DNA from: a virus | Lineage: Duplodnaviria > Heunggongvirae > Uroviricota > Caudoviricetes | Direction: 5' to 3' (one strand) | DNA length: 11,283 nucleotides | Virus record (IMG/VR): IMGVR_UViG_2675903654_000023 | Shown here: positions 3,098-9,582 of the stretch, piece after piece | Layout of the letters: every line of letters starts with the position of its first letter | Numbering within the stretch: position 1 is the first letter of the stretch | Notes under the pieces: generated by a model | What the model saw: the letters and a program-made list of their open reading frames with translations, nothing else | The model's database searches: none | Told to the model about the DNA's origin: nothing | Program-made: the position numbers and the translations under genes

Positions 3098-3191
3098 CGT
3101 TTACTGTTCATGACACCCCCTTAGTTGAGTGGGTATATCATACACAATAAACCGTAAACGGATAATCAACCTAAGATTAGCCCGAACAAAG

Positions 3192-3206
3192 TTACCTTAT
3201 AGGTAA
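3192..3206. promoter_or_regulatory. Palindromic operator-like site TTACC-N5-GGTAA (copy 1 of 4)
   Basis: Seen directly: gTTACCttataGGTAAa. It lies in the AT-rich intergenic island between the lysis cassette (minus strand) and a small plus-strand ORF. Confidence 0.45.
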
Positions 3207-3271
3207 AACTCTTACTGTTGAATGTTAATTTATATAGGTTTCCCTTTCGGATGTTAAAGAGTGGGAATCGC

Positions 3272-3442
3272 ATGAACACAATAACTAAATTTGGGCACTG
3301 GTTTATCATGGCGATGGGGATTGCATGCCTGTTAATGCTAATAACAGGCATTTCCTCTGCGAAAGTTTTTGTTGGTGTTGATATCGCAATGATAGCGATA
3401 TGGCTATGGGATGAATATTCCCACTGGAAGCACAAGCAATAG
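3272..3442 (+). CDS. Hypothetical small membrane protein (56 aa, two hydrophobic segments)
   Basis: Internal ATG of track ORF 3218-3442. A purine-rich stretch (AGAGTGGGAA) precedes the ATG. Lies in an AT-rich island convergent with the tailspike gene. Coding status is uncertain. Confidence 0.3.
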   Translation: MNTITKFGHWFIMAMGIACLLMLITGISSAKVFVGVDIAMIAIWLWDEYSHWKHKQ

Positions 3443-5518
3443 CTATTTATTGGAAAATAAATTCTCAAGCTTGCTAATTCTGGCTTCCAGTTTCTGCCGC
3501 TCTCTCCGCTGATATGCAGCTTCCAGCCAGAGACATTGATCAGCACGAATGCCCCATCGGTTTCCCGCTGGCGTAACCAGCAGCCTGCCCTCAGGCTTTA
3601 CAATCTCTGTCCAGGCTTCTTTCTTGACGATTTGCTGCATTGATACATCCAAAATAGAAGAATACTCGGCAGGATGCTCAACCACTTCCTCAGGGATAAT
3701 CTCGTACTGGTCTTGCCATTCATCGTAACAGAGCAGGCCAAATCGAGTCCCGTCGATTCCTTTCGACTCGAATGCCTCTTTAACCTGTTGTGCAATAACG
3801 CCAAAATGCCAACGTGCGCCAGCCTGCCCCTTTTCTTTAATAGAATTCAGCCACTGAAAAGCGATTATTGAAACTTCCCCCCACGCGTCAAGTATTGCAT
3901 TTTCATCAACAGCCATGAATTTCGATAGCTCTGATACTTTAATCGGCTGTGATTTTTCACGGCCGTCTGAAGTATTAATTGAACCAGTGCCTGCAAAAAC
4001 GGTGCTCCAGCGGTTTACGATATCACCCAAAGGTGTTGAGTTATCATTACCAGGGGTTAACGCGCGCTGGGAGACTGCGGCAGGCTTAATCTGGAGACGC
4101 ACCTCATTTCCGGATACAAATTTTAAACTAGTGTCGCCTGTTGTACCTAAATAAGTCCCGTTTACATCAGTTGTCACAAAGCCGTGAAAGTTACCGGTCG
4201 CCCCGCCGCGCCAGCTTATGGCGTAAGTTAATTGCGACGGATCTATGCCAAATCCTGCAGCGCCATTCTGGAACATCTTGCCAAGGTTCGGAGCATAATA
4301 GCCATAGCCATTCATCTGTCGGACATTTATAGCTACGTTCGCTCCCCGAGCCGCTTTTAAATGCTCAATATAAACGCCGCTTTGTTCACCTACAATGCCA
4401 GTACTTCCAAGCAAAACATCATTGATATATACCCCTCTGCGGTCGAGTATCGTCCCGGTTCCATTATGTGATGGGGATGAATAAAATCCCTGCATGTTTT
4501 CCAGAGTTCCGCTTCCGGCGTAATTAATACGATCTTGAAAGCTGAAAGCGTGATTTTGAGCGTGGCCGCCAGTTATGATTAGCGTTGAATCAAAAGCTCC
4601 ATATCCGCCATAGTCGGAGGCCTGATTAATAACTGTCTTATCTGCGAAGGCGTGGCAGTTCGTTGGCGCGTTATCGATACGACGAGCCACGTTTATGGCG
4701 TCTCTTAGCGAATCAGGCGACGGCCATGTAGCGCCAGCCACGCCGACTGGCTGGTCGCCAACTATAAGATTTCCGTACGTGGTTGAGATGCGTAAACCGC
4801 CTGTCATTGTGTCGCCGCGCTTGTCGACTGCGTTACCTACCCTTTTGACTCCATCAGGCTGAGCCAGGGTTATCAGTACGTCAGAGGCGCTACCGCTTTG
4901 TGGAACAACAGTAATTGGATTTCCTGATGAATCGAAAGCCAATAGCTGATTTGCTCGCATCGACACGCCAGGAACTGGGCCTACATAACTCTCCGGAACC
5001 CGTAGCGTGCGGTTGAAGTTAACGTTGTTAAGCGTATCAACATAATTTTTAGTGGCTGCATCTTGGGGGGTTGAAGGATCGCGTAAGTTTCTGATGTAAT
5101 TGTTAAGCGCATCATAATAATTTGCCACGAATGACGGCTTACGCAGCGCCAAGCTAAACCAACTTCGAACCTGCTGGATCAGCATCGTTAGCTTATCAAA
5201 AGCATCCTCATGCACTTCTGCAAAGAACTTACCCTGATTACGCAAATCAGTTTCCTGCGTAACCGGGAGCTCTCGTGATATAGAAATCTGATAACCGCTA
5301 ACCAATGCCTTCGACAGAATTATATTGCCACCATTGTATCCTCCAGCCCCAGTAACTATGTAATCAGTGTCAAGAATCAGCTCTGTGATGTTCTCGTTCA
5401 GGTCAACAACCTGCACTACTAAATCAGATTTCTGGAAAATCCTGAAGGTATAAGGGAATGTCGTTGTAACACCGTTACCGGTGTATTCGTTGTGGTCAAC
5501 TTCGGTTGAGACCGTCAT
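3443..5518 (-). CDS. Tailspike / tail fibre protein with a C-terminal intramolecular chaperone (peptidase S74-like) domain
   Basis: 691 aa. The N-terminal roughly 120 aa resemble the particle-binding N-domain of podovirus tail fibres/tailspikes (YTGNGVTTTFPYTF...). The central region is Gly/Asn/Thr-rich, consistent with a beta-helix receptor-binding or depolymerase domain. The C-terminal roughly 175 aa start with an S-D-x-R-x-K motif (SDGREK, about residue 517, nt about 3968-3970), the hallmark of self-cleaving chaperone domains. RBS GGAG lies 7 nt upstream of the ATG at 5518. Confidence 0.85.
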   Translation of the reverse strand: MTVSTEVDHNEYTGNGVTTTFPYTFRIFQKSDLVVQVVDLNENITELILDTDYIVTGAGGYNGGNIILSKALVSGYQISISRELPVTQETDLRNQGKFFAEVHEDAFDKLTMLIQQVRSWFSLALRKPSFVANYYDALNNYIRNLRDPSTPQDAATKNYVDTLNNVNFNRTLRVPESYVGPVPGVSMRANQLLAFDSSGNPITVVPQSGSASDVLITLAQPDGVKRVGNAVDKRGDTMTGGLRISTTYGNLIVGDQPVGVAGATWPSPDSLRDAINVARRIDNAPTNCHAFADKTVINQASDYGGYGAFDSTLIITGGHAQNHAFSFQDRINYAGSGTLENMQGFYSSPSHNGTGTILDRRGVYINDVLLGSTGIVGEQSGVYIEHLKAARGANVAINVRQMNGYGYYAPNLGKMFQNGAAGFGIDPSQLTYAISWRGGATGNFHGFVTTDVNGTYLGTTGDTSLKFVSGNEVRLQIKPAAVSQRALTPGNDNSTPLGDIVNRWSTVFAGTGSINTSDGREKSQPIKVSELSKFMAVDENAILDAWGEVSIIAFQWLNSIKEKGQAGARWHFGVIAQQVKEAFESKGIDGTRFGLLCYDEWQDQYEIIPEEVVEHPAEYSSILDVSMQQIVKKEAWTEIVKPEGRLLVTPAGNRWGIRADQCLWLEAAYQRRERQKLEARISKLENLFSNK

Positions 5519-5674
5519 GTTAAATCTCCGGATAGTCGCAGCACCCGTTGCGCCGCATATCCGGTTATTCTATTACCTGAAAAACCACATATGGATATAT
5601 AACCCATAAATACGAACAGATATTACCTTTCAGGTGATTCGCAAAACGTGCTGGATAGCAAACAAATTATTTGA

Positions 5675-5694
5675 TACTGTATATTTATACAGTT
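5675..5694. promoter_or_regulatory. LexA (SOS) box
   Basis: Seen directly: TACTGTATATTTATACAGTT, matching the CTGT-N8-ACAG LexA consensus (TACTGTATATATATACAGTA) at 18 of 20 positions. It ends 19 nt upstream of the ATG at 5714. A possible -35 (TTGATA, 5671-5676) abuts it. Confidence 0.7.
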
Positions 5695-5713
5695 ATTGCA
5701 TGGAGAAGATAAG

Positions 5714-5971
5714 ATGCAGCAGTATCACTATCCACTGGAAGACGGATTTACCGAAAGGATTCACACGCCGGGAGGCGTCAGGTCACTGGTGGAGGGATCG
5801 CACTTGATGAAATTACTCCGGGATCTCGATAAGGATGGATTTAATGTCGATGGCCCACTTGCCGAACTGACTGCACTGATTAACTACGTCACCAGCTCAC
5901 AGATGTCTATGCGGGATCTGCAAACACATCTCGACTATTGTGCCGAACAATTACGAAAACAAACCAGATAA
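5714..5971 (+). CDS. Small stand-alone antirepressor C-domain protein (85 aa), probably SOS-controlled
   Basis: RBS GGAG (5702-5705) precedes the ATG at 5714. The protein aligns without gaps over about 72 residues with the shared C-terminal domain of the two larger antirepressor-like proteins, at roughly 45-50% identity by eye (IHTPGGV...LMKLL...DG..V.G..AELT...RDLQTH..Y). The LexA box lies immediately upstream. Confidence 0.6.
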   Translation: MQQYHYPLEDGFTERIHTPGGVRSLVEGSHLMKLLRDLDKDGFNVDGPLAELTALINYVTSSQMSMRDLQTHLDYCAEQLRKQTR

Positions 5972-5974
5972 GGT

Positions 5975-6003
5975 TTGCAATTACCAAGTGGAGTGCTTAT
6001 ATT
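5975..6003 (+). promoter_or_regulatory. Sigma70-type promoter of the plus-arm sRNA-like element
   Basis: Seen directly: -35 TTGCAA (5975-5980), 17-nt spacer, -10 TATATT (5998-6003). It begins 4 nt after the stop codon of the 85-aa gene. Confidence 0.5.
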
Positions 6004-6017
6004 TACCTTTGCGGTAA
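6003..6017. promoter_or_regulatory. Palindromic operator-like site TTACC-N5-GGTAA (copy 2 of 4), overlapping the -10/+1 of the sRNA promoter
   Basis: Seen directly: ATTTACCtttgcGGTAAAT, an extended 7-5-7 palindrome. Confidence 0.5.
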
Positions 6018-6130
6018 ATTTACATCGCACTCCTCTTGTGCCATAGTAATCGGGCACTGGCAAAATCCAGTGCCGGGATTGGCGTCCCGGATTACTACAG
6101 AGGCACATATGCCGCATAAGCGGTTTTTTT
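6010..6130 (+). ncRNA. Candidate structured small RNA / terminated leader (plus arm)
   Basis: Bounded by the promoter above and an intrinsic terminator (GCCGC-ATAA-GCGG followed by seven T, about 6111-6130). The core (about 6004-6097) is more than 95% identical to the inverted copy at 8993-9086. It contains stable hairpins (GGCACTGG-CAAAAT-CCAGTGCC and CCGGGA-TTGGCG-TCCCGG). No conserved ORF spans it. Confidence 0.5.
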
Positions 6131-6225
6131 ATGTGTAAAACGCACCTATTCTATGGTGGGCTGTGTGGGGGCACCGAAAGGTGCGCCGGGTCCTTTGTAG
6201 CCGGTTACGCCAACTCTGCACAGTT

Positions 6226-6256
6226 CACCACCAACCGATTGGCGTCGGTAGTGGTG
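6226..6256 (+). promoter_or_regulatory. Leader hairpin upstream of the Bro-N antirepressor RBS, loop UUGGCG
   Basis: Seen directly: CACCACC-A-ACCGA-TTGGCG-TCGGT-A-GTGGTG. The loop is identical to the hairpin-2 loop of the plus-arm sRNA element. The hairpin ends about 27 nt before the ATG at 6284. Confidence 0.45.
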
Positions 6257-6283
6257 ATTAACCTAACTACAAAGGTGATCACT

Positions 6284-6970
6284 ATGACTGCTAACGTAAC
6301 CCCATCTGTTTTTCATTTTGAATCAGAAGCAACCATTCGAGCCATTGTTATTGATGGAAATCCTTGGTTTGTTGCCAAAGACGTTATTAAAGCTCTTCAA
6401 CTGACAAACCCCACTATGTCAATAAAATCTCTTGATGATGATGAAAGGGCTAAATTTAACTTAGGCCGTCAAGGCGAAACCAATATTATCAACGAGTCAG
6501 GCCTCTACACACTGATCCTCCGCTGCCGCGACGCAGTGACACCAGGCACTATCCCCTACCGCTTTCGTAAATGGGTTACAGGTGAGGTTCTTCCTCAGAT
6601 CCGCCGCACCGGAAGTTACATTAAAAACTCGCTCCCGCAGGAAGAACGCATAAAGATGGTTGCCGACCAGGTAGCCAACGCCACGGCGTCAGCAGTGATG
6701 AAGGCGATGAAGATAGAGAACAAAACCTACAGCGCCCCGCTGAAGCCAGGCTACCGCAGCCTGATTCACTCGCCGTCTGGTGTTCTCGGCCTGACGGAGA
6801 ACTCACTGCTGATGAATCTGCTGAACCAGTTACAGGAAGACGGGCACGACGTATCGGGCGCGGCGGCGGAGCTGACCACCATGTTCTGCTACATCGTCGG
6901 TGTGAGCAAATGCCTGCGTGATATCCAGACGCACGCGGAGTACATCAACGACAAGGCTGGGTTCTTCTGA
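6284..6970 (+). CDS. Antirepressor-like protein: N-terminal Bro-N domain plus shared C-terminal domain
   Basis: Internal ATG of track ORF 6131-6970, with RBS AGGTGA 5 nt upstream. The N-terminus has Bro-N motifs (IRAIVIDGNPWFVAKDV...GLYTLILRCR...FRKWVTGEVLPQIRRTG). The C-terminal roughly 80 aa are identical to those of the convergent gene at 8144-8800. Confidence 0.8.
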   Translation: MTANVTPSVFHFESEATIRAIVIDGNPWFVAKDVIKALQLTNPTMSIKSLDDDERAKFNLGRQGETNIINESGLYTLILRCRDAVTPGTIPYRFRKWVTGEVLPQIRRTGSYIKNSLPQEERIKMVADQVANATASAVMKAMKIENKTYSAPLKPGYRSLIHSPSGVLGLTENSLLMNLLNQLQEDGHDVSGAAAELTTMFCYIVGVSKCLRDIQTHAEYINDKAGFF

Positions 6971-6993
6971 CGGGCGGCGGCACAGGGATGTGC
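6730..6993. repeat. Inner inverted repeat, left arm (partner 8121-8385)
   Basis: Seen directly by reverse-complement comparison. About 230 bp (6763-6993) are near-identical to the reverse complement of 8121-8352, with one mismatch noticed. Identity drops to roughly 90% over the preceding 30 bp and is then lost. It covers the shared C-domain coding sequence plus a 3' hairpin (GGCACAGGGATGTGCC). Confidence 0.85.
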
Positions 6994-7042
6994 CTTTAAA
7001 TAATTCTGTACAGATTGCAGACTGTGGGTGAATAGCGTACTA

Positions 7043-7057
7043 TTACCTCAAGGGTAA
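7043..7057. promoter_or_regulatory. Palindromic operator-like site TTACC-N5-GGTAA (copy 3 of 4), upstream of the central module
   Basis: Seen directly: aTTACCtcaagGGTAAa. It is followed by a second inverted repeat (ACGGATT-N14-AATCCGT, 7059-7086) that overlaps a candidate promoter. Confidence 0.45.
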
Positions 7058-7063
7058 ACGGAT

Positions 7064-7093
7064 TGGTTTCATTTTTATTAATCCGTGTAATGA
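7064..7093 (+). promoter_or_regulatory. Candidate promoter of the central two-gene module
   Basis: Possible -35 TTGGTT (7064-7069), 18-nt spacer, -10 TAATGA (7088-7093). This is a weak call from reading the sequence only. Confidence 0.3.
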
Positions 7094-7117
7094 ACTTATG
7101 AGATATGAGGTAATGTC

Positions 7118-7297
7118 ATGCGAAACGAAAAATTGCAGATGCGTAGAGCGCAAGCTGCCGCAAGACGTTCTTTCAATGGAAGCGTAGAGTACGTAAAAGT
7201 TACTATGACAAAAGATCACGCAAGTCGCGTATCCCGCGCTTTCTTTGATTCTCGTAACAATAAGGAAAATTATGAGTTCGTCTGCGTCGCAGAATGA
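7118..7297 (+). CDS. Small basic protein (59 aa), candidate antitoxin or regulator of the central module
   Basis: Absent from the ORF track, presumably below its length cut-off; hand-translated as MRNEKLQMRRAQAAARRSFNGSVEYVKVTMTKDHASRVSRAFFDSRNNKENYEFVCVAE. Strong RBS GAGG 7 nt upstream of the ATG at 7118. Its 3' end overlaps the start of the next gene by 26 nt in a different frame. Confidence 0.45.
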   Translation: MRNEKLQMRRAQAAARRSFNGSVEYVKVTMTKDHASRVSRAFFDSRNNKENYEFVCVAE

Positions 7298-7817
7298 TAA
7301 AAATCAAGTTGTCAGATATAAGGGTCGAGTGTTGCATACGCAAAATTTCTCGGCCCTTTGTGCATCTGATCTTGAGCTGAAGAAAGTATCTGATGCCTTT
7401 ACCCAGTATTGGAAAACGGGATACCATCCATCTCTTGGTAAAGATGCTGCATTTGCTCGTCCGACAGAAATGCTTAAACTAAATGTCAGGCATACTCATG
7501 TCGATAACCAAGACTATATTCCAGAAGATAGTGATAAAAAACACACTGGTAAAAAATCATCTTGGGATGCATGGAAAAATATAGCGTCTGTACAAGTAAA
7601 ATGCATACCAACAAGTGATTGCTTTTTAGTTTATTCGGTAAATCACAATCGTGATGCGCTGGTTATGTTTTTTGTTGACGCAGATGCTCACAACATAACT
7701 GAGCAAGAAGAGTTTAAAGAGGAAGCAATCACTATCAGTTATCAATTCTTTGAGAAAACAAAAACAGAACCAATGCCTTTAGAAGAAGATCTTTTTTCTG
7801 ATAAATGGAAGGAATAG
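7272..7817 (+). CDS. Hypothetical protein (181 aa), candidate toxin; weak YafO-like resemblance
   Basis: Internal ATG of track ORF 7245-7817, with RBS AAGGA 5 nt upstream. AT-rich coding sequence. Segments (GKDAAF...LNVRHTHV...CFLVYSV...ALVMFFVDADAH) resemble motifs I recall from YafO-family toxins; this is from memory and unverified. An intrinsic terminator follows directly. Confidence 0.55.
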   Translation: MSSSASQNDKNQVVRYKGRVLHTQNFSALCASDLELKKVSDAFTQYWKTGYHPSLGKDAAFARPTEMLKLNVRHTHVDNQDYIPEDSDKKHTGKKSSWDAWKNIASVQVKCIPTSDCFLVYSVNHNRDALVMFFVDADAHNITEQEEFKEEAITISYQFFEKTKTEPMPLEEDLFSDKWKE

Positions 7818-7837
7818 CCCGCAGCGCGGGCTTTTTT
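7817..7837 (+). terminator. Intrinsic terminator of the central module
   Basis: Seen directly: stem GCCCGC (7817-7822), loop AGC, stem GCGGGC (7826-7831), then six T (7832-7837). It overlaps the stop codon. Confidence 0.7.
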
Positions 7838-7909
7838 GTGGACGAAACAAAAGTCAGTGCTACACTCATTGACGCCACATTGAGGTGGCTTATAGATGGA
7901 AATTTCACA

Positions 7910-8071
7910 ATGAAAAAAGCATTTGCTGCACTGTTCGTTTTGTTGTCTCTGGTAGCTTCAACTCAGGCCTTTGCCGGTCGTTGTCAGCACGACAGCGATA
8001 CTGCCGCTGACGGCTCCCGCTGCGGTGGGCGTTCTGCGGATTCCCGCCCGGGCGGCGGTGGCATTCGTTAA
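7910..8071 (+). CDS. Hypothetical small secreted peptide (53 aa precursor, about 31 aa mature, two Cys), possibly leaderless
   Basis: Internal ATG of track ORF 7805-8071. Signal peptide MKKAFAALFVLLSLVASTQAFA followed by a Gly/Arg/Asp-rich tail. A candidate promoter (TTGACG 7869-7874, TATAGA 7891-7896) would place the transcript start only a few nt before the ATG. No convincing Shine-Dalgarno. Coding status is uncertain. Confidence 0.3.
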   Translation: MKKAFAALFVLLSLVASTQAFAGRCQHDSDTAADGSRCGGRSADSRPGGGGIR

Positions 8072-8094
8072 AAACAAGGCCGCGAAAGCGGCCT
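8070..8094 (-). terminator. Candidate intrinsic terminator downstream of the AntA-type antirepressor gene
   Basis: Plus strand AGGCCGC-GAAA-GCGGCCT (8077-8094). On the minus strand this hairpin is followed by TGTTTTT. A 12-bp perfect palindrome GTGACATGTCAC (8095-8106) lies adjacent. Confidence 0.4.
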
Positions 8095-8120
8095 GTGACA
8101 TGTCACGCTAGTTTCGTTTT

Positions 8121-8385
8121 GCACGTCCCTGTGCCGCCGCCCGTCAGAAGAACCCAGCCTTGTCGTTGATGTACTCCGCGTGCGTCTGGATATCACGCAG
8201 GCATTTGCTCACACCGACGATGTAGCAGAACATGGTGGTCAGCTCCGCCGCCGCGCCCGATACGTCGTGCCCGTCTTCCTGTAACTGGTTCAGCAGATTC
8301 ATCAGCAGTGAGTTCTCCGTCAGGCCGAGAACACCAGACGGCGAGTGAATCAAACTGCGGTAGCCGGGCTTCAGTGGGGCGCTGT
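8121..8385. repeat. Inner inverted repeat, right arm (partner 6730-6993)
   Basis: Reverse complement is near-identical to 6763-6993; see the left-arm entry. Confidence 0.85.
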
Positions 8386-8800
8386 ATTCTTTTTTGTCTT
8401 CCAGCTTGATCGCCTCCATAATGGCGGGCATGAAGCCTGACAAGACCTTCTCCACTTTTGTTTCTTGTTGTCTTAAACGTTTCTCGCATTCAATGAAGTA
8501 GCGTCGTACCTGACGACCTTTTTCGTTACGCTCGACCATCGCCAGCTCTTTGGCTGTATCAAGGGTGAGGTGGTACTCTTTGCGGTTGTGGCCGCCTCTA
8601 CCAGATGTTTGCTTTCCCAAATTGGAAAGCAAAATATAGTCTTGATTTTCAATGAATTCGTATTCTGATATGCGATTTGTAATCCATGCTGCAAACACCT
8701 TTTTAACACCTAAAAAAGCGTGCAGATCGCGGGCATTACAAAGTAGGGCTGTTTCGTTAGATATAGTGCCGTTGAATACGGGGATGAGTTGAGCGTTCAT
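8144..8800 (-). CDS. Antirepressor-like protein: N-terminal AntA-type domain plus shared C-terminal domain
   Basis: The N-terminus matches the AntA/AntB antirepressor N-domain pattern (LIPVFNGT...[10 protein letters not shown]...W...EYEF...[27 protein letters not shown]). The C-terminal roughly 80 aa are identical to those of the 6284-6970 product. RBS GGAG 8 nt upstream of the ATG at 8800. Confidence 0.85.
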
Positions 8801-8828
8801 GATGGCGTCTCCACTTAGCGAATTACAT

Positions 8829-8859
8829 CACCACCGCTGAGACCAATCAGATGGTGGTG
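8829..8859 (-). promoter_or_regulatory. Leader hairpin upstream of the AntA-type antirepressor RBS, loop UUGGUC
   Basis: Minus-strand reading: CACCACC-AT-CTGA-TTGGTC-TCAG-C-GGTGGTG. The loop is identical to the hairpin-2 loop of the minus-arm sRNA element, and the stem differs from the plus-arm leader by compensatory changes. Confidence 0.45.
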
Positions 8860-8958
8860 AACTGAACGGAGTTGGTCTTACCGGCCTAAGTGGTACCGGC
8901 GTCCTTTCGGACCCCCATTCAGCCCACCATAATTCTGGCATGACTGTGCTATACGCAT

Positions 8959-9080
8959 AAAAAAAACCACGTCTGGCGTGGTATGCGCCACTTAGTAATC
9001 CGGGAGACCAATCCCGGCACTGGATTTTGCCAGTGCATGATTACTATGGCACAAGAGGAGTGCGATGTAAATTTACCGCA
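8959..9080 (-). ncRNA. Candidate structured small RNA / terminated leader (minus arm)
   Basis: Inverted copy of the 6010-6130 element. Its own intrinsic terminator on the minus strand is ACCACG-CCAGA-CGTGGT followed by eight T (plus coordinates about 8959-8982), different in sequence from the plus-arm terminator. Hairpin-2 reads CCGGGA-TTGGTC-TCCCGG. Confidence 0.5.
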
Positions 9081-9087
9081 AAGGTAA
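9073..9087. promoter_or_regulatory. Palindromic operator-like site TTACC-N5-GGTAA (copy 4 of 4), overlapping the -10/+1 of the minus-arm sRNA promoter
   Basis: Seen directly: TTTACCgcaaaGGTAA. It is part of the outer inverted repeat. Confidence 0.5.
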
Positions 9088-9116
9088 TGATAAGCGCTAA
9101 GAAATATTAAAATCAA
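9087..9116 (-). promoter_or_regulatory. Sigma70-type promoter of the minus-arm sRNA-like element
   Basis: Minus-strand reading: -35 TTGATT (plus 9111-9116), 18-nt spacer, -10 TATCAT (plus 9087-9092). Sequence upstream of the -10 is not homologous to the plus-arm promoter, yet a promoter is retained. Confidence 0.45.
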
Positions 9117-9234: not shown

Positions 9235-9582
9235 GTGCCATTCCACGGCGCAGAGCTTTATGTTGTCAATCACAACGGCGAACCGTATACCCCAATGAAA
9301 CCTATCGTTGAGGGAATGGGGCTAGACTGGAAATCTCAACATAAGAAGATTTCTCAACGCTTCTCGAAGGGTATGGTGGAAATCACCATACCTTCTGCCG
9401 GTGGGGTGCAAGCCATGATTTGTATGGCTTTACGAAAATTGGCAGCTTGGTTGAACAGCATCAGCCCTAACAAAGTCCGCCCTGAAATCCGCGAAAGTAT
9501 TGAAACATCAACCGTATCGATATCGACACGGTTGATTATGACGGTAACTTATTTCCGTGTGTCCTATTTCTCCCGCCACTAA
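9235..9582 (+). pseudogene. Probable remnant of an antirepressor N-terminal (P22_AR_N-like) domain gene
   Basis: The track ORF starts at a GTG with no RBS. Residues about 8-85 (LYVVNHNGEPYTPMKPIVEGMGLDWKSQHKKISQRF...LRKLAAWLNSISPNKVRPEIRE) resemble antirepressor N-terminal domains as I recall them. The last roughly 30 residues look like out-of-frame read-through. It ends back-to-back with the convergent 98-aa gene. Confidence 0.35.

Follow-up and report, generated by a model that had tools for sequence, protein, structure and literature searches.

A TTACC-N5-GGTAA palindrome at accessory promoters of an epsilon15-like prophage is very probably the operator of a Rep-type immunity repressor

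The window and its palindromes

We analyzed a stretch of viral DNA of 11,283 nucleotides (IMG/VR record IMGVR_UViG_2675903654_000023; at its full length referred to as the window), in which a 15-bp palindrome, TTACC-N5-GGTAA, recurs near accessory genes. Sequence comparison identifies the window as the right end of an Escherichia coli prophage of the epsilon15-like (Uetakevirus) group: it shares 99.1% DNA identity with phage TL-2011b over 68% of its length, and less with phiV10, epsilon15 and further Uetakevirus phages. None of the complete E. coli genomes covers 80% or more of the window. Rightward from the attachment core, the window carries lysis genes (minus strand), the tailspike gene (minus strand), an accessory region and structural genes. 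Its left end is as follows.

1-1071: host yfgH/yfgI
1163-1179: attachment core aatcattcccactcaat, read from the sequence (core sequence from PMC9782041)

A scan of the window with TTACCNNNNNGGTAA returned four perfect copies of the palindrome and one copy with a single mismatch, all of them intergenic.

3192-3206: putative operator TTACCTTATAGGTAA, separating the lysis cassette (minus strand) from a divergently oriented small open reading frame (ORF; plus strand) that stands in place of serotype-conversion genes
5623-5637: putative operator TTACCTTTCAGGTGA (one mismatch), flanked by the minus-strand tailspike gene and a small ant gene on the plus strand
6003-6017: putative operator TTACCTTTGCGGTAA, between two promoters of a first IsrK/C4 antirepressor unit
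7043-7057: putative operator TTACCTCAAGGGTAA, ahead of a module of a 59-amino-acid ORF (orf59) and a YafO-like gene, abutting a weak promoter
9073-9087: putative operator, in the control region of a second IsrK/C4 unit

An earlier note, made from the letters of the window, had listed the same copies at the same coordinates, and its rough chance expectation of ~0.01 agrees with the 0.012 perfect copies that we computed from base composition. With up to one mismatch allowed, the five matches compare with a mean of 0.21 in 200 dinucleotide-preserving shuffles, none of which reached five. The copies at 6003 and 9073 lie within an inverted repeat (arms 5992-6097 and 8993-9098, 93% complementary). 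Thus, the window contains three independent perfect sites, as had been recognized, and the imperfect one.

Distribution of the motif over the phage genomes

Perfect sites were counted in seven related genomes: 10 in TL-2011b, 8 in phiV10, 11 in epsilon15, 10 in the prophage of E. coli 2015C-4498 (CP027552), 10 in SPC32H, 9 in Tyrion and 10 in Kp4865-1, with ~0.04 expected per genome. As unrelated DNA we used phage lambda, phage P22 and ~9 kb of host DNA flanking the CP027552 prophage, which contained 0, 1 and 0 sites, respectively. A similar density in unrelated DNA, which the earlier note had named as speaking against a regulatory role, is thus not seen in these controls. The sites are also not special to the region covered by the window but belong to a phage-wide set of ~14.

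In the CP027552 prophage, the closest complete prophage, 12 of the 14 sites (up to one mismatch) are intergenic, whereas just 9% of its sequence is intergenic. The remaining two lie at the very 5' end of a terminase gene, the annotated start of which is probably too early. Several positions are fixed in every genome: three sites in the rep-cro intergenic region, a pair spaced by 62 bp on the far side of the repressor gene, another 62-bp pair before a gp14-like gene, two sites before terS, one before the head genes, and the late-region sites as in the window. The 62-bp pairs flank early promoters in every genome. The 68 pooled perfect sites give the consensus aTTACC-N5-GGTAAt, with invariant half-sites and a variable, A/T-rich spacer, the center base of which is A or T in 68/68 sites and never G or C. 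Orthologous sites are kept in alignments whose flanks diverge.

Two further repeats were noted in the relatives. A one-mismatch copy, TTACCTTAAAGGTAT, adjoins attP and the integrase gene in all seven genomes (L001 135-149; L002, which is phiV10, 26870-26884; L003 26882-26896; L005 26960-26974). It sits in a larger inverted repeat (gacggta...taccgtc) and may reflect control of int by Rep or be an unrelated integrase-arm site. In phiV10, tandem iterons CCAAAAACGGGATG lie inside the replication-initiator gene (33685-33823) and probably mark the replication origin.

Rep as the candidate regulator

The GenBank record of epsilon15 (AY150271.2) contains seven protein_bind features labeled "repressor / lysogeny", and all seven read (A)TTACC-N5-GGTAA(T). 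The window site at 5623 is the positional orthologue of one of them (19895-19911; alignment A2). The lysis-region site likewise has a counterpart in epsilon15, at 24704, which is unannotated there. The palindrome is thus an already annotated operator, found here at additional, previously undescribed accessory promoters.

Both closest relatives of the window, TL-2011b and the CP027552 prophage, encode a homologue of Rep, the repressor of Salmonella phage SPC32H. Rep of the CP027552 prophage matches SPC32H Rep (PDB 5D50 chain A) over its full length (E 3.6e-42). By tblastn, Rep was found in 37 phage records; 36 of these are full-length and enterobacterial (Escherichia, Salmonella, Klebsiella, Enterobacter) and the remaining one is a weak partial Pseudomonas match. 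The Pfam matches of Rep are to helix-turn-helix families only, with no S24 peptidase (self-cleavage) domain, and a lambda-type self-cleaving CI system was rejected for this reason. The rep gene would be located ~30 kb away in the prophage, outside the window. A regulator encoded elsewhere had been one proposal of the earlier note, and an epsilon15/SPC32H-type Rep answers to it, the motif being identical to the annotated epsilon15 repressor sites and clustering around rep in the relatives.

SPC32H Rep is reported to bind palindromic sites as a tetramer (PMC9638917) and to be taken apart by the tetrameric antirepressor Ant (PMC9638917; PMC9986798). The proposal of a single dimeric regulator therefore stands as to one regulator and an operator-type site, but not as to the simple dimer. 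Overexpressing the 99% identical Rep of phage ZX5 brought transcripts of holin and endolysin down by 99.97-99.99%, and a Bro-N antirepressor reduced lysogeny (PMC9782041).

Taken on these homologies, Rep is very probably the protein that binds the palindromes of the window. The main immunity repressor of epsilon15-like temperate phages would use TTACC-N5-GGTAA (more fully aTTACC, a W-rich 5-mer and GGTAAt) as its operator and, according to secondary sources on the SPC32H work, would be inactivated by the small antirepressor Ant and not by RecA. The five window sites would then be single outlying operators that place accessory late-region units under Rep control. A different palindrome, the MqsA-type ACCT-N3-AGGT (half-sites 2-4 nt apart), was also considered and rejected: only the sites at 3192 and 5623 of the five fit it, and the positions flanking the core vary over the 68 sites.

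Putative operators at the IsrK/C4 antirepressor units

In the earlier note, two small RNA (sRNA) units had been described. Rfam identifies each as IsrK plus a C4 antisense RNA with a1/b1-like elements. The two units comprise the following features.

5975-6003, plus strand: outer promoter P(a) of unit 1 (TTGCAA, 17 nt, TATATT; consensus scan), the -10 overlapping the operator by 1 nt
6019-6047, plus strand: inner promoter P(b) of unit 1 (TTTACA, 17 nt, TGcCATAGT; consensus scan)
6054-6130, plus strand: IsrK-type RNA with terminator, unit 1 (Rfam RF01394, 76.8 bits, E 1.9e-15)
6149-6235, plus strand: C4 antisense RNA, unit 1 (Rfam RF01695, 76.2 bits, E 7.2e-14)
6284-6970, plus strand: antirepressor 1 (Pfam Bro-N and a C-terminal SPC32H-Ant-like domain, residues 147-224)
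8144-8800, minus strand: antirepressor 2 (Pfam AntA and a C-terminal SPC32H-Ant-like domain, residues 137-210)
8850-8934, minus strand: C4 RNA, unit 2 (Rfam, 61.2 bits)
8960-9036, minus strand: IsrK, unit 2 (Rfam, 67.7 bits)
9043-9116, minus strand: control region of unit 2, with P(b) (TTTACA, 17 nt, TGcCATAGT, as in unit 1) at 9071-9043, the operator at 9087-9073 (TTACCTTTGCGGTAA on the minus strand) and P(a) at 9116-9087
9116-9087, minus strand: outer promoter P(a) of unit 2 (TTGATT, 18 nt, TATCAT), the -10 overlapping the first operator base

The C4 matches lie above the gathering score of 45 bits, whereas those of the a1b1 elements (45.1 and 37.6 bits) are just under theirs (46.7). An antirepressor gene lies downstream of each C4 RNA, as in the immI arrangement of phage P1. 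In unit 1, the inferred start of P(b), 6054, coincides with position 1 of the Rfam isrK match, which puts the operator center at -44.

We aligned five Uetakevirus IsrK units with three lambdoid ones (VT2-Sakai, Gifsy-1 and SW-37). The inner promoter is conserved in all eight. In contrast, the operator is present only in the Uetakevirus units (5 of 8), always one base before the -35, with a spacer that differs between units. The tandem arrangement of P(a) and P(b) with the operator between them is kept in the five Uetakevirus units, the promoters being consensus matches only. Since lambdoid IsrK units keep P(b) without the motif, the palindrome belongs to the regulon of the resident repressor and not to the RNA module. 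The earlier note had placed the palindrome over the -10/+1 of the sRNA promoters. It does abut the -10 of the outer promoter, whereas the -35 of the conserved inner promoter starts just past it.

Rep bound at an operator that starts on the last -10 base would block the outer promoters of both IsrK/C4 units. Transcription from the inner promoter may continue in the lysogen, providing C4 antisense RNA.

In phiV10, the IsrK-unit operator lies inside a near-perfect palindrome with 23-nt arms (20479-20529). Its spacer, GCAAA, is the reverse complement of the TTTGC of the window, which suggests a template-switch or palindrome-correction event.

Putative operators at the cargo, lysis and tailspike genes

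The cargo module lies between the two antirepressor genes.

7118-7817, plus strand: the 59-amino-acid ORF, overlapping a YafO-family toxin gene at 7272-7817 (Pfam YafO_toxin)

The two genes are presumably a toxin-antitoxin pair. The weak promoter ahead of them (TTGCAG 7015-7020, 17 nt, TACTAT 7038-7043) was read from the sequence and scores 7/12, under the scan threshold; the operator starts at its last -10 base and is also present in TL-2011b, at 33333. The same order, a -10 followed by the operator, is seen at early promoters of relatives (for example TTGACA-16-TAATCA-TTACC and TTGATT-17-TTTAA-TTACC). A -10 hexamer abuts the operator at four different promoters. This layout at the IsrK units, the cargo module and the early promoters argues for repression by occlusion there, and Rep at the cargo operator would block the promoter of the orf59/YafO-like genes. 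A neighboring ORF (7910-8071), located between two terminators, encodes a peptide of 53 residues, which is signal-like at its N-terminus and rich in Gly/Arg in its tail. The peptide has no Pfam match; the TL-2011b annotation calls it a transmembrane-anchored protein.

A different geometry is found at the lysis and tailspike genes.

3137-3161, minus strand: lysis promoter block, consisting of a dyad CCGTTTACGG (plus strand CCGTAAACGG, 3152-3161), 9 nt and the -10 TATGAT (3142-3137); invariant in alignment A3
5570-5594, minus strand: tailspike promoter block, consisting of a dyad CCACATATGG (5585-5594), 9 nt and the -10 TAATAG (5575-5570)

The site at 3192 has orthologues in phiV10, epsilon15, SPC32H and Tyrion (alignment A3), with conserved half-sites and variable spacer and flanks. 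At both genes the operator lies ~40-42 bp upstream of the conserved block, at about -67 to -69 from the inferred start; at the lysis gene its center is ~69 bp upstream of a start that is inferred, not mapped. The suggestion of an operator at the lysis promoter thus holds for the presence of the site, but a position ~67-69 bp ahead of the inferred start does not point to simple occlusion of the promoter. Rep could act on the promoters of the tailspike and lysis genes only through looping or by interfering with an activator. A candidate sigma-70 promoter (TTGTTC...) that would immediately follow the lysis operator was dropped in favor of the block that is conserved in all relatives. With this qualification, the idea that the palindrome ties together the sRNA/antirepressor units, the cargo module and the lysis region is supported.

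Across genera, the tailspike and lysis promoters share a 10-bp dyad CC-N6-GG, 9 nt and a -10 hexamer, without a -35. The lysis dyad of the window differs from its relatives by symmetric changes (arms CCAT/ATGG to CCGT/ACGG). The shared layout may mark the site of a late activator; a CC-W6-GG dyad showed no genome-wide enrichment. On its other side, the lysis operator is followed by the plus-strand ORF at 3272-3442, whose start codon it precedes by 66 bp. It encodes 56 residues without a Pfam match and occupies the position of the O-antigen conversion genes (oac; gp21/gp22) of relatives.

Ant-domain genes and a predicted induction circuit

The small ant gene lies to the right of the 5623 site.

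5675-5694, plus strand: LexA box TACTGTATATTTATACAGTT, an inverted repeat read from the sequence, overlapping the ant promoter (TTGATA 5671-5676)
5714-5971, plus strand: small antirepressor Ant, 85 amino acids (87% identity to SPC32H ant, 83% to epsilon15 gp19)

The CTGT/ACAG of the LexA box is conserved in all relatives in the alignment. LexA control of SPC32H ant was reportedly described by Kim and Ryu in 2013, and in the window, too, a LexA-boxed small Ant gene accompanies the Rep-type system. Over their C-terminal ~75 residues, the two large antirepressors share 41-43% identity with the small Ant (41% for antirepressor 1, 43% for antirepressor 2), and antirepressor 1 matches PDB 5D50 chain E (E 1.1e-13). 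The window therefore contains three SPC32H-type Ant-domain genes, the first preceded by a LexA box and the others by operator/IsrK/C4 leaders, with three control layers over them: LexA, IsrK/C4 RNA and the Rep operator.

Because both large antirepressors carry the SPC32H-Ant domain, a feedback circuit is predicted. The SOS response would lift LexA from the small ant gene, and Ant would disable Rep. This would open the outer promoters of the two larger Ant-domain genes, subject to C4 RNA, and induction would be reinforced or locked in. We infer this SOS-Ant-Rep circuit, like the binding of Rep at the window sites, from homology and geometry.

Two neighboring features were noted. The Ant-like C-terminal domain shared by antirepressors 1 and 2 is encoded by an inverted repeat of 279 nt (6715-6993 and 8121-8399, 96% complementary). 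The YafO-like cargo is contained in the ~1.1 kb that separates the arms, a segment that recombination could invert. Further to the right, a truncated ORF of 115 amino acids (9235-9582, GTG start) carries a P22-antirepressor N-terminal domain; it is what remains of an Arc/Ant-type module, of which TL-2011b and the CP027552 prophage have intact versions.

Weighing Rep against other explanations

Several points weigh against Rep as the regulator of these sites. That the source prophage has a rep gene is an assumption based on its relatives, as the window itself has no rep gene, and the repressor-site features of the epsilon15 record may be predictions. A Cro-like protein probably shares the sites, which would leave the identity of the operator unchanged. 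Operator positions of -44 and about -68 are not classical for repression, and the promoter calls are consensus matches that are no more frequent than in shuffled sequence. Furthermore, an operator lies 40-42 bp before phiV10 oac and epsilon15 gp22, lysogenic-conversion genes that lysogens do express; Rep would thus not be a simple off-switch at every site. Our confidence in the sign of regulation at individual sites is accordingly much below that in Rep as the binding protein.

One reading of these positions is that Rep acts in two ways, depending on where its operator lies. It would repress where the operator abuts the -10 (outer ant promoters, cargo, early promoters), and at about -44 it may activate or leave the promoter untouched, making C4 RNA and conversion genes lysogen-specific and forming a layered toggle with the three Ant-domain genes. 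The sole measured case at -44 is the conserved inner IsrK/C4 promoter; the conversion-gene operators of phiV10 and epsilon15 (40-42 bp) may be another. We consider this two-way action possible but doubtful.

It is quite unlikely that some other phage regulator is the main protein at these sites, for example a Cro-like protein encoded next to rep or a regulator encoded just before the terminase genes, in the service of lytic timing and not of prophage repression. Such a regulator would be in keeping with the three sites in the rep-cro region, where Cro normally shares operators; the positions of the two adjacent sites directly before terS and of the single sites far ahead of the promoters for the tailspike and lysis genes would be suitable for an activator or anti-activator. 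However, the epsilon15 record assigns the sites to the repressor, the 62-bp pairs flanking early promoters fit a tetrameric repressor, and sharing with Cro does not alter what the operator is.

A primary role of the palindromes in recombination, as module boundaries for cassette exchange or inversion, appears very improbable. Homology breakpoints between units and between relatives do fall at or beside the operator, the phiV10 spacer is inverted inside its near-perfect palindrome with 23-nt arms, and different cargo genes at one locus each have an operator copy (L004, site 8981). But no recombinase is associated with the sites, the motif also stands at core early promoters, which show no module exchange, and shared operators are expected to act as incidental patches of homology, so that recombination is best seen as a side effect.

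We give even less weight to an RNA function, in which the palindrome would form a 5' hairpin on outer-promoter transcripts as a stabilizing or processing signal. Every copy can form a stem of 4-6 bp, and at three sites a P(a)-type transcript would begin with the palindrome. Yet the hairpin is weak (-3.0 to -3.5 kcal/mol) and its stem is invariant, with no compensatory changes over the 68 sites, as one would expect if a protein recognizes the sequence and not if it folds into an RNA helix. Numerous copies are found ahead of promoters or between diverging genes, in no common orientation, and lambdoid IsrK units function without the motif.

The 59-amino-acid protein, put forward in the earlier note as a possible regulator, is small, basic and encoded directly behind the site at 7043, but can be dismissed almost entirely: among the seven motif-bearing genomes its gene and the YafO-like partner occur only in TL-2011b and not in phiV10, epsilon15, SPC32H, Tyrion, Kp4865-1 or the CP027552 prophage, a Pfam search returned no domain match, DNA-binding or other, and its overlap with the YafO-family toxin gene is antitoxin-like.

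Relation to known systems

Rep-operator control, as proposed for the window, has parallels in five systems. The repressor sites of epsilon15 (AY150271.2; Kropinski et al. 2007, Virology 369:234) are identical in sequence to the window motif, although its gp38 is only ~43% identical overall to the E. coli-type Rep. Epsilon15 has no IsrK/C4/antirepressor units and no YafO cargo, and the window sites at 6003, 7043 and 9073 are without counterpart there. The Rep-Ant switch of SPC32H (Kim and Ryu 2013, J Virol; Kim et al. 2016, PNAS; PDB 5D50, 5D4Z) is similar in its components: a full-length Rep homologue is present in the relatives of the window, the same motif set occurs at syntenic positions, and the small Ant behind a LexA box is also found in the window. 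In addition, the window prophage has two larger fusions, Bro-N-Ant and AntA-Ant, which are IsrK/C4-controlled and each preceded by an operator.

With lambda CI the system shares three operators between repressor and cro and more beyond the repressor gene, at conserved spacing, and the half-site variants TCACC/GGTGA resemble the lambda half-site. In contrast to CI, Rep is without the S24 self-cleavage domain, induction is by antirepressor, and the half-sites are spaced by N5; in lambda the spacing is N3.

The immI operon of P1 is said to comprise P51a/Op51, P51b, c4 RNA and ant, with a C1 repressor that has many dispersed operators (work attributed to Heinrich, Velleman and Schuster, 1995). The window resembles it in having C4 RNA and a1/b1-like elements upstream of an antirepressor gene and, on consensus matches only, putative tandem promoters with a repressor site on the outer one; in both systems, operators are dispersed throughout the genome. 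C1 of P1 is not related to Rep and recognizes an asymmetric 17-mer, whereas the operator here is a symmetric 5-N5-5 palindrome. Finally, the Gifsy-1 IsrK/anrP unit and those of Shiga-toxin (Stx) phages have IsrK, C4 RNAs and an inner promoter homologous to those of the window but, unlike the window units, no TTACC-N5-GGTAA upstream of the promoter.

In conclusion, a motif that looks orphaned within the window is now tied to a named, structurally characterized regulator. This is not a new kind of system. In this prophage, the immunity switch would extend to the accessory units, which are two antirepressor genes under RNA control, a cargo resembling a toxin-antitoxin pair, and the regions of the lysis and tailspike genes. 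Should Rep indeed act in two ways, the large Ant fusions could perhaps also affect related prophages in trans. Such prophages occur in Shiga-toxin-producing strains (TL-2011b is from an outbreak isolate), and the logic of their induction is therefore of some practical interest.

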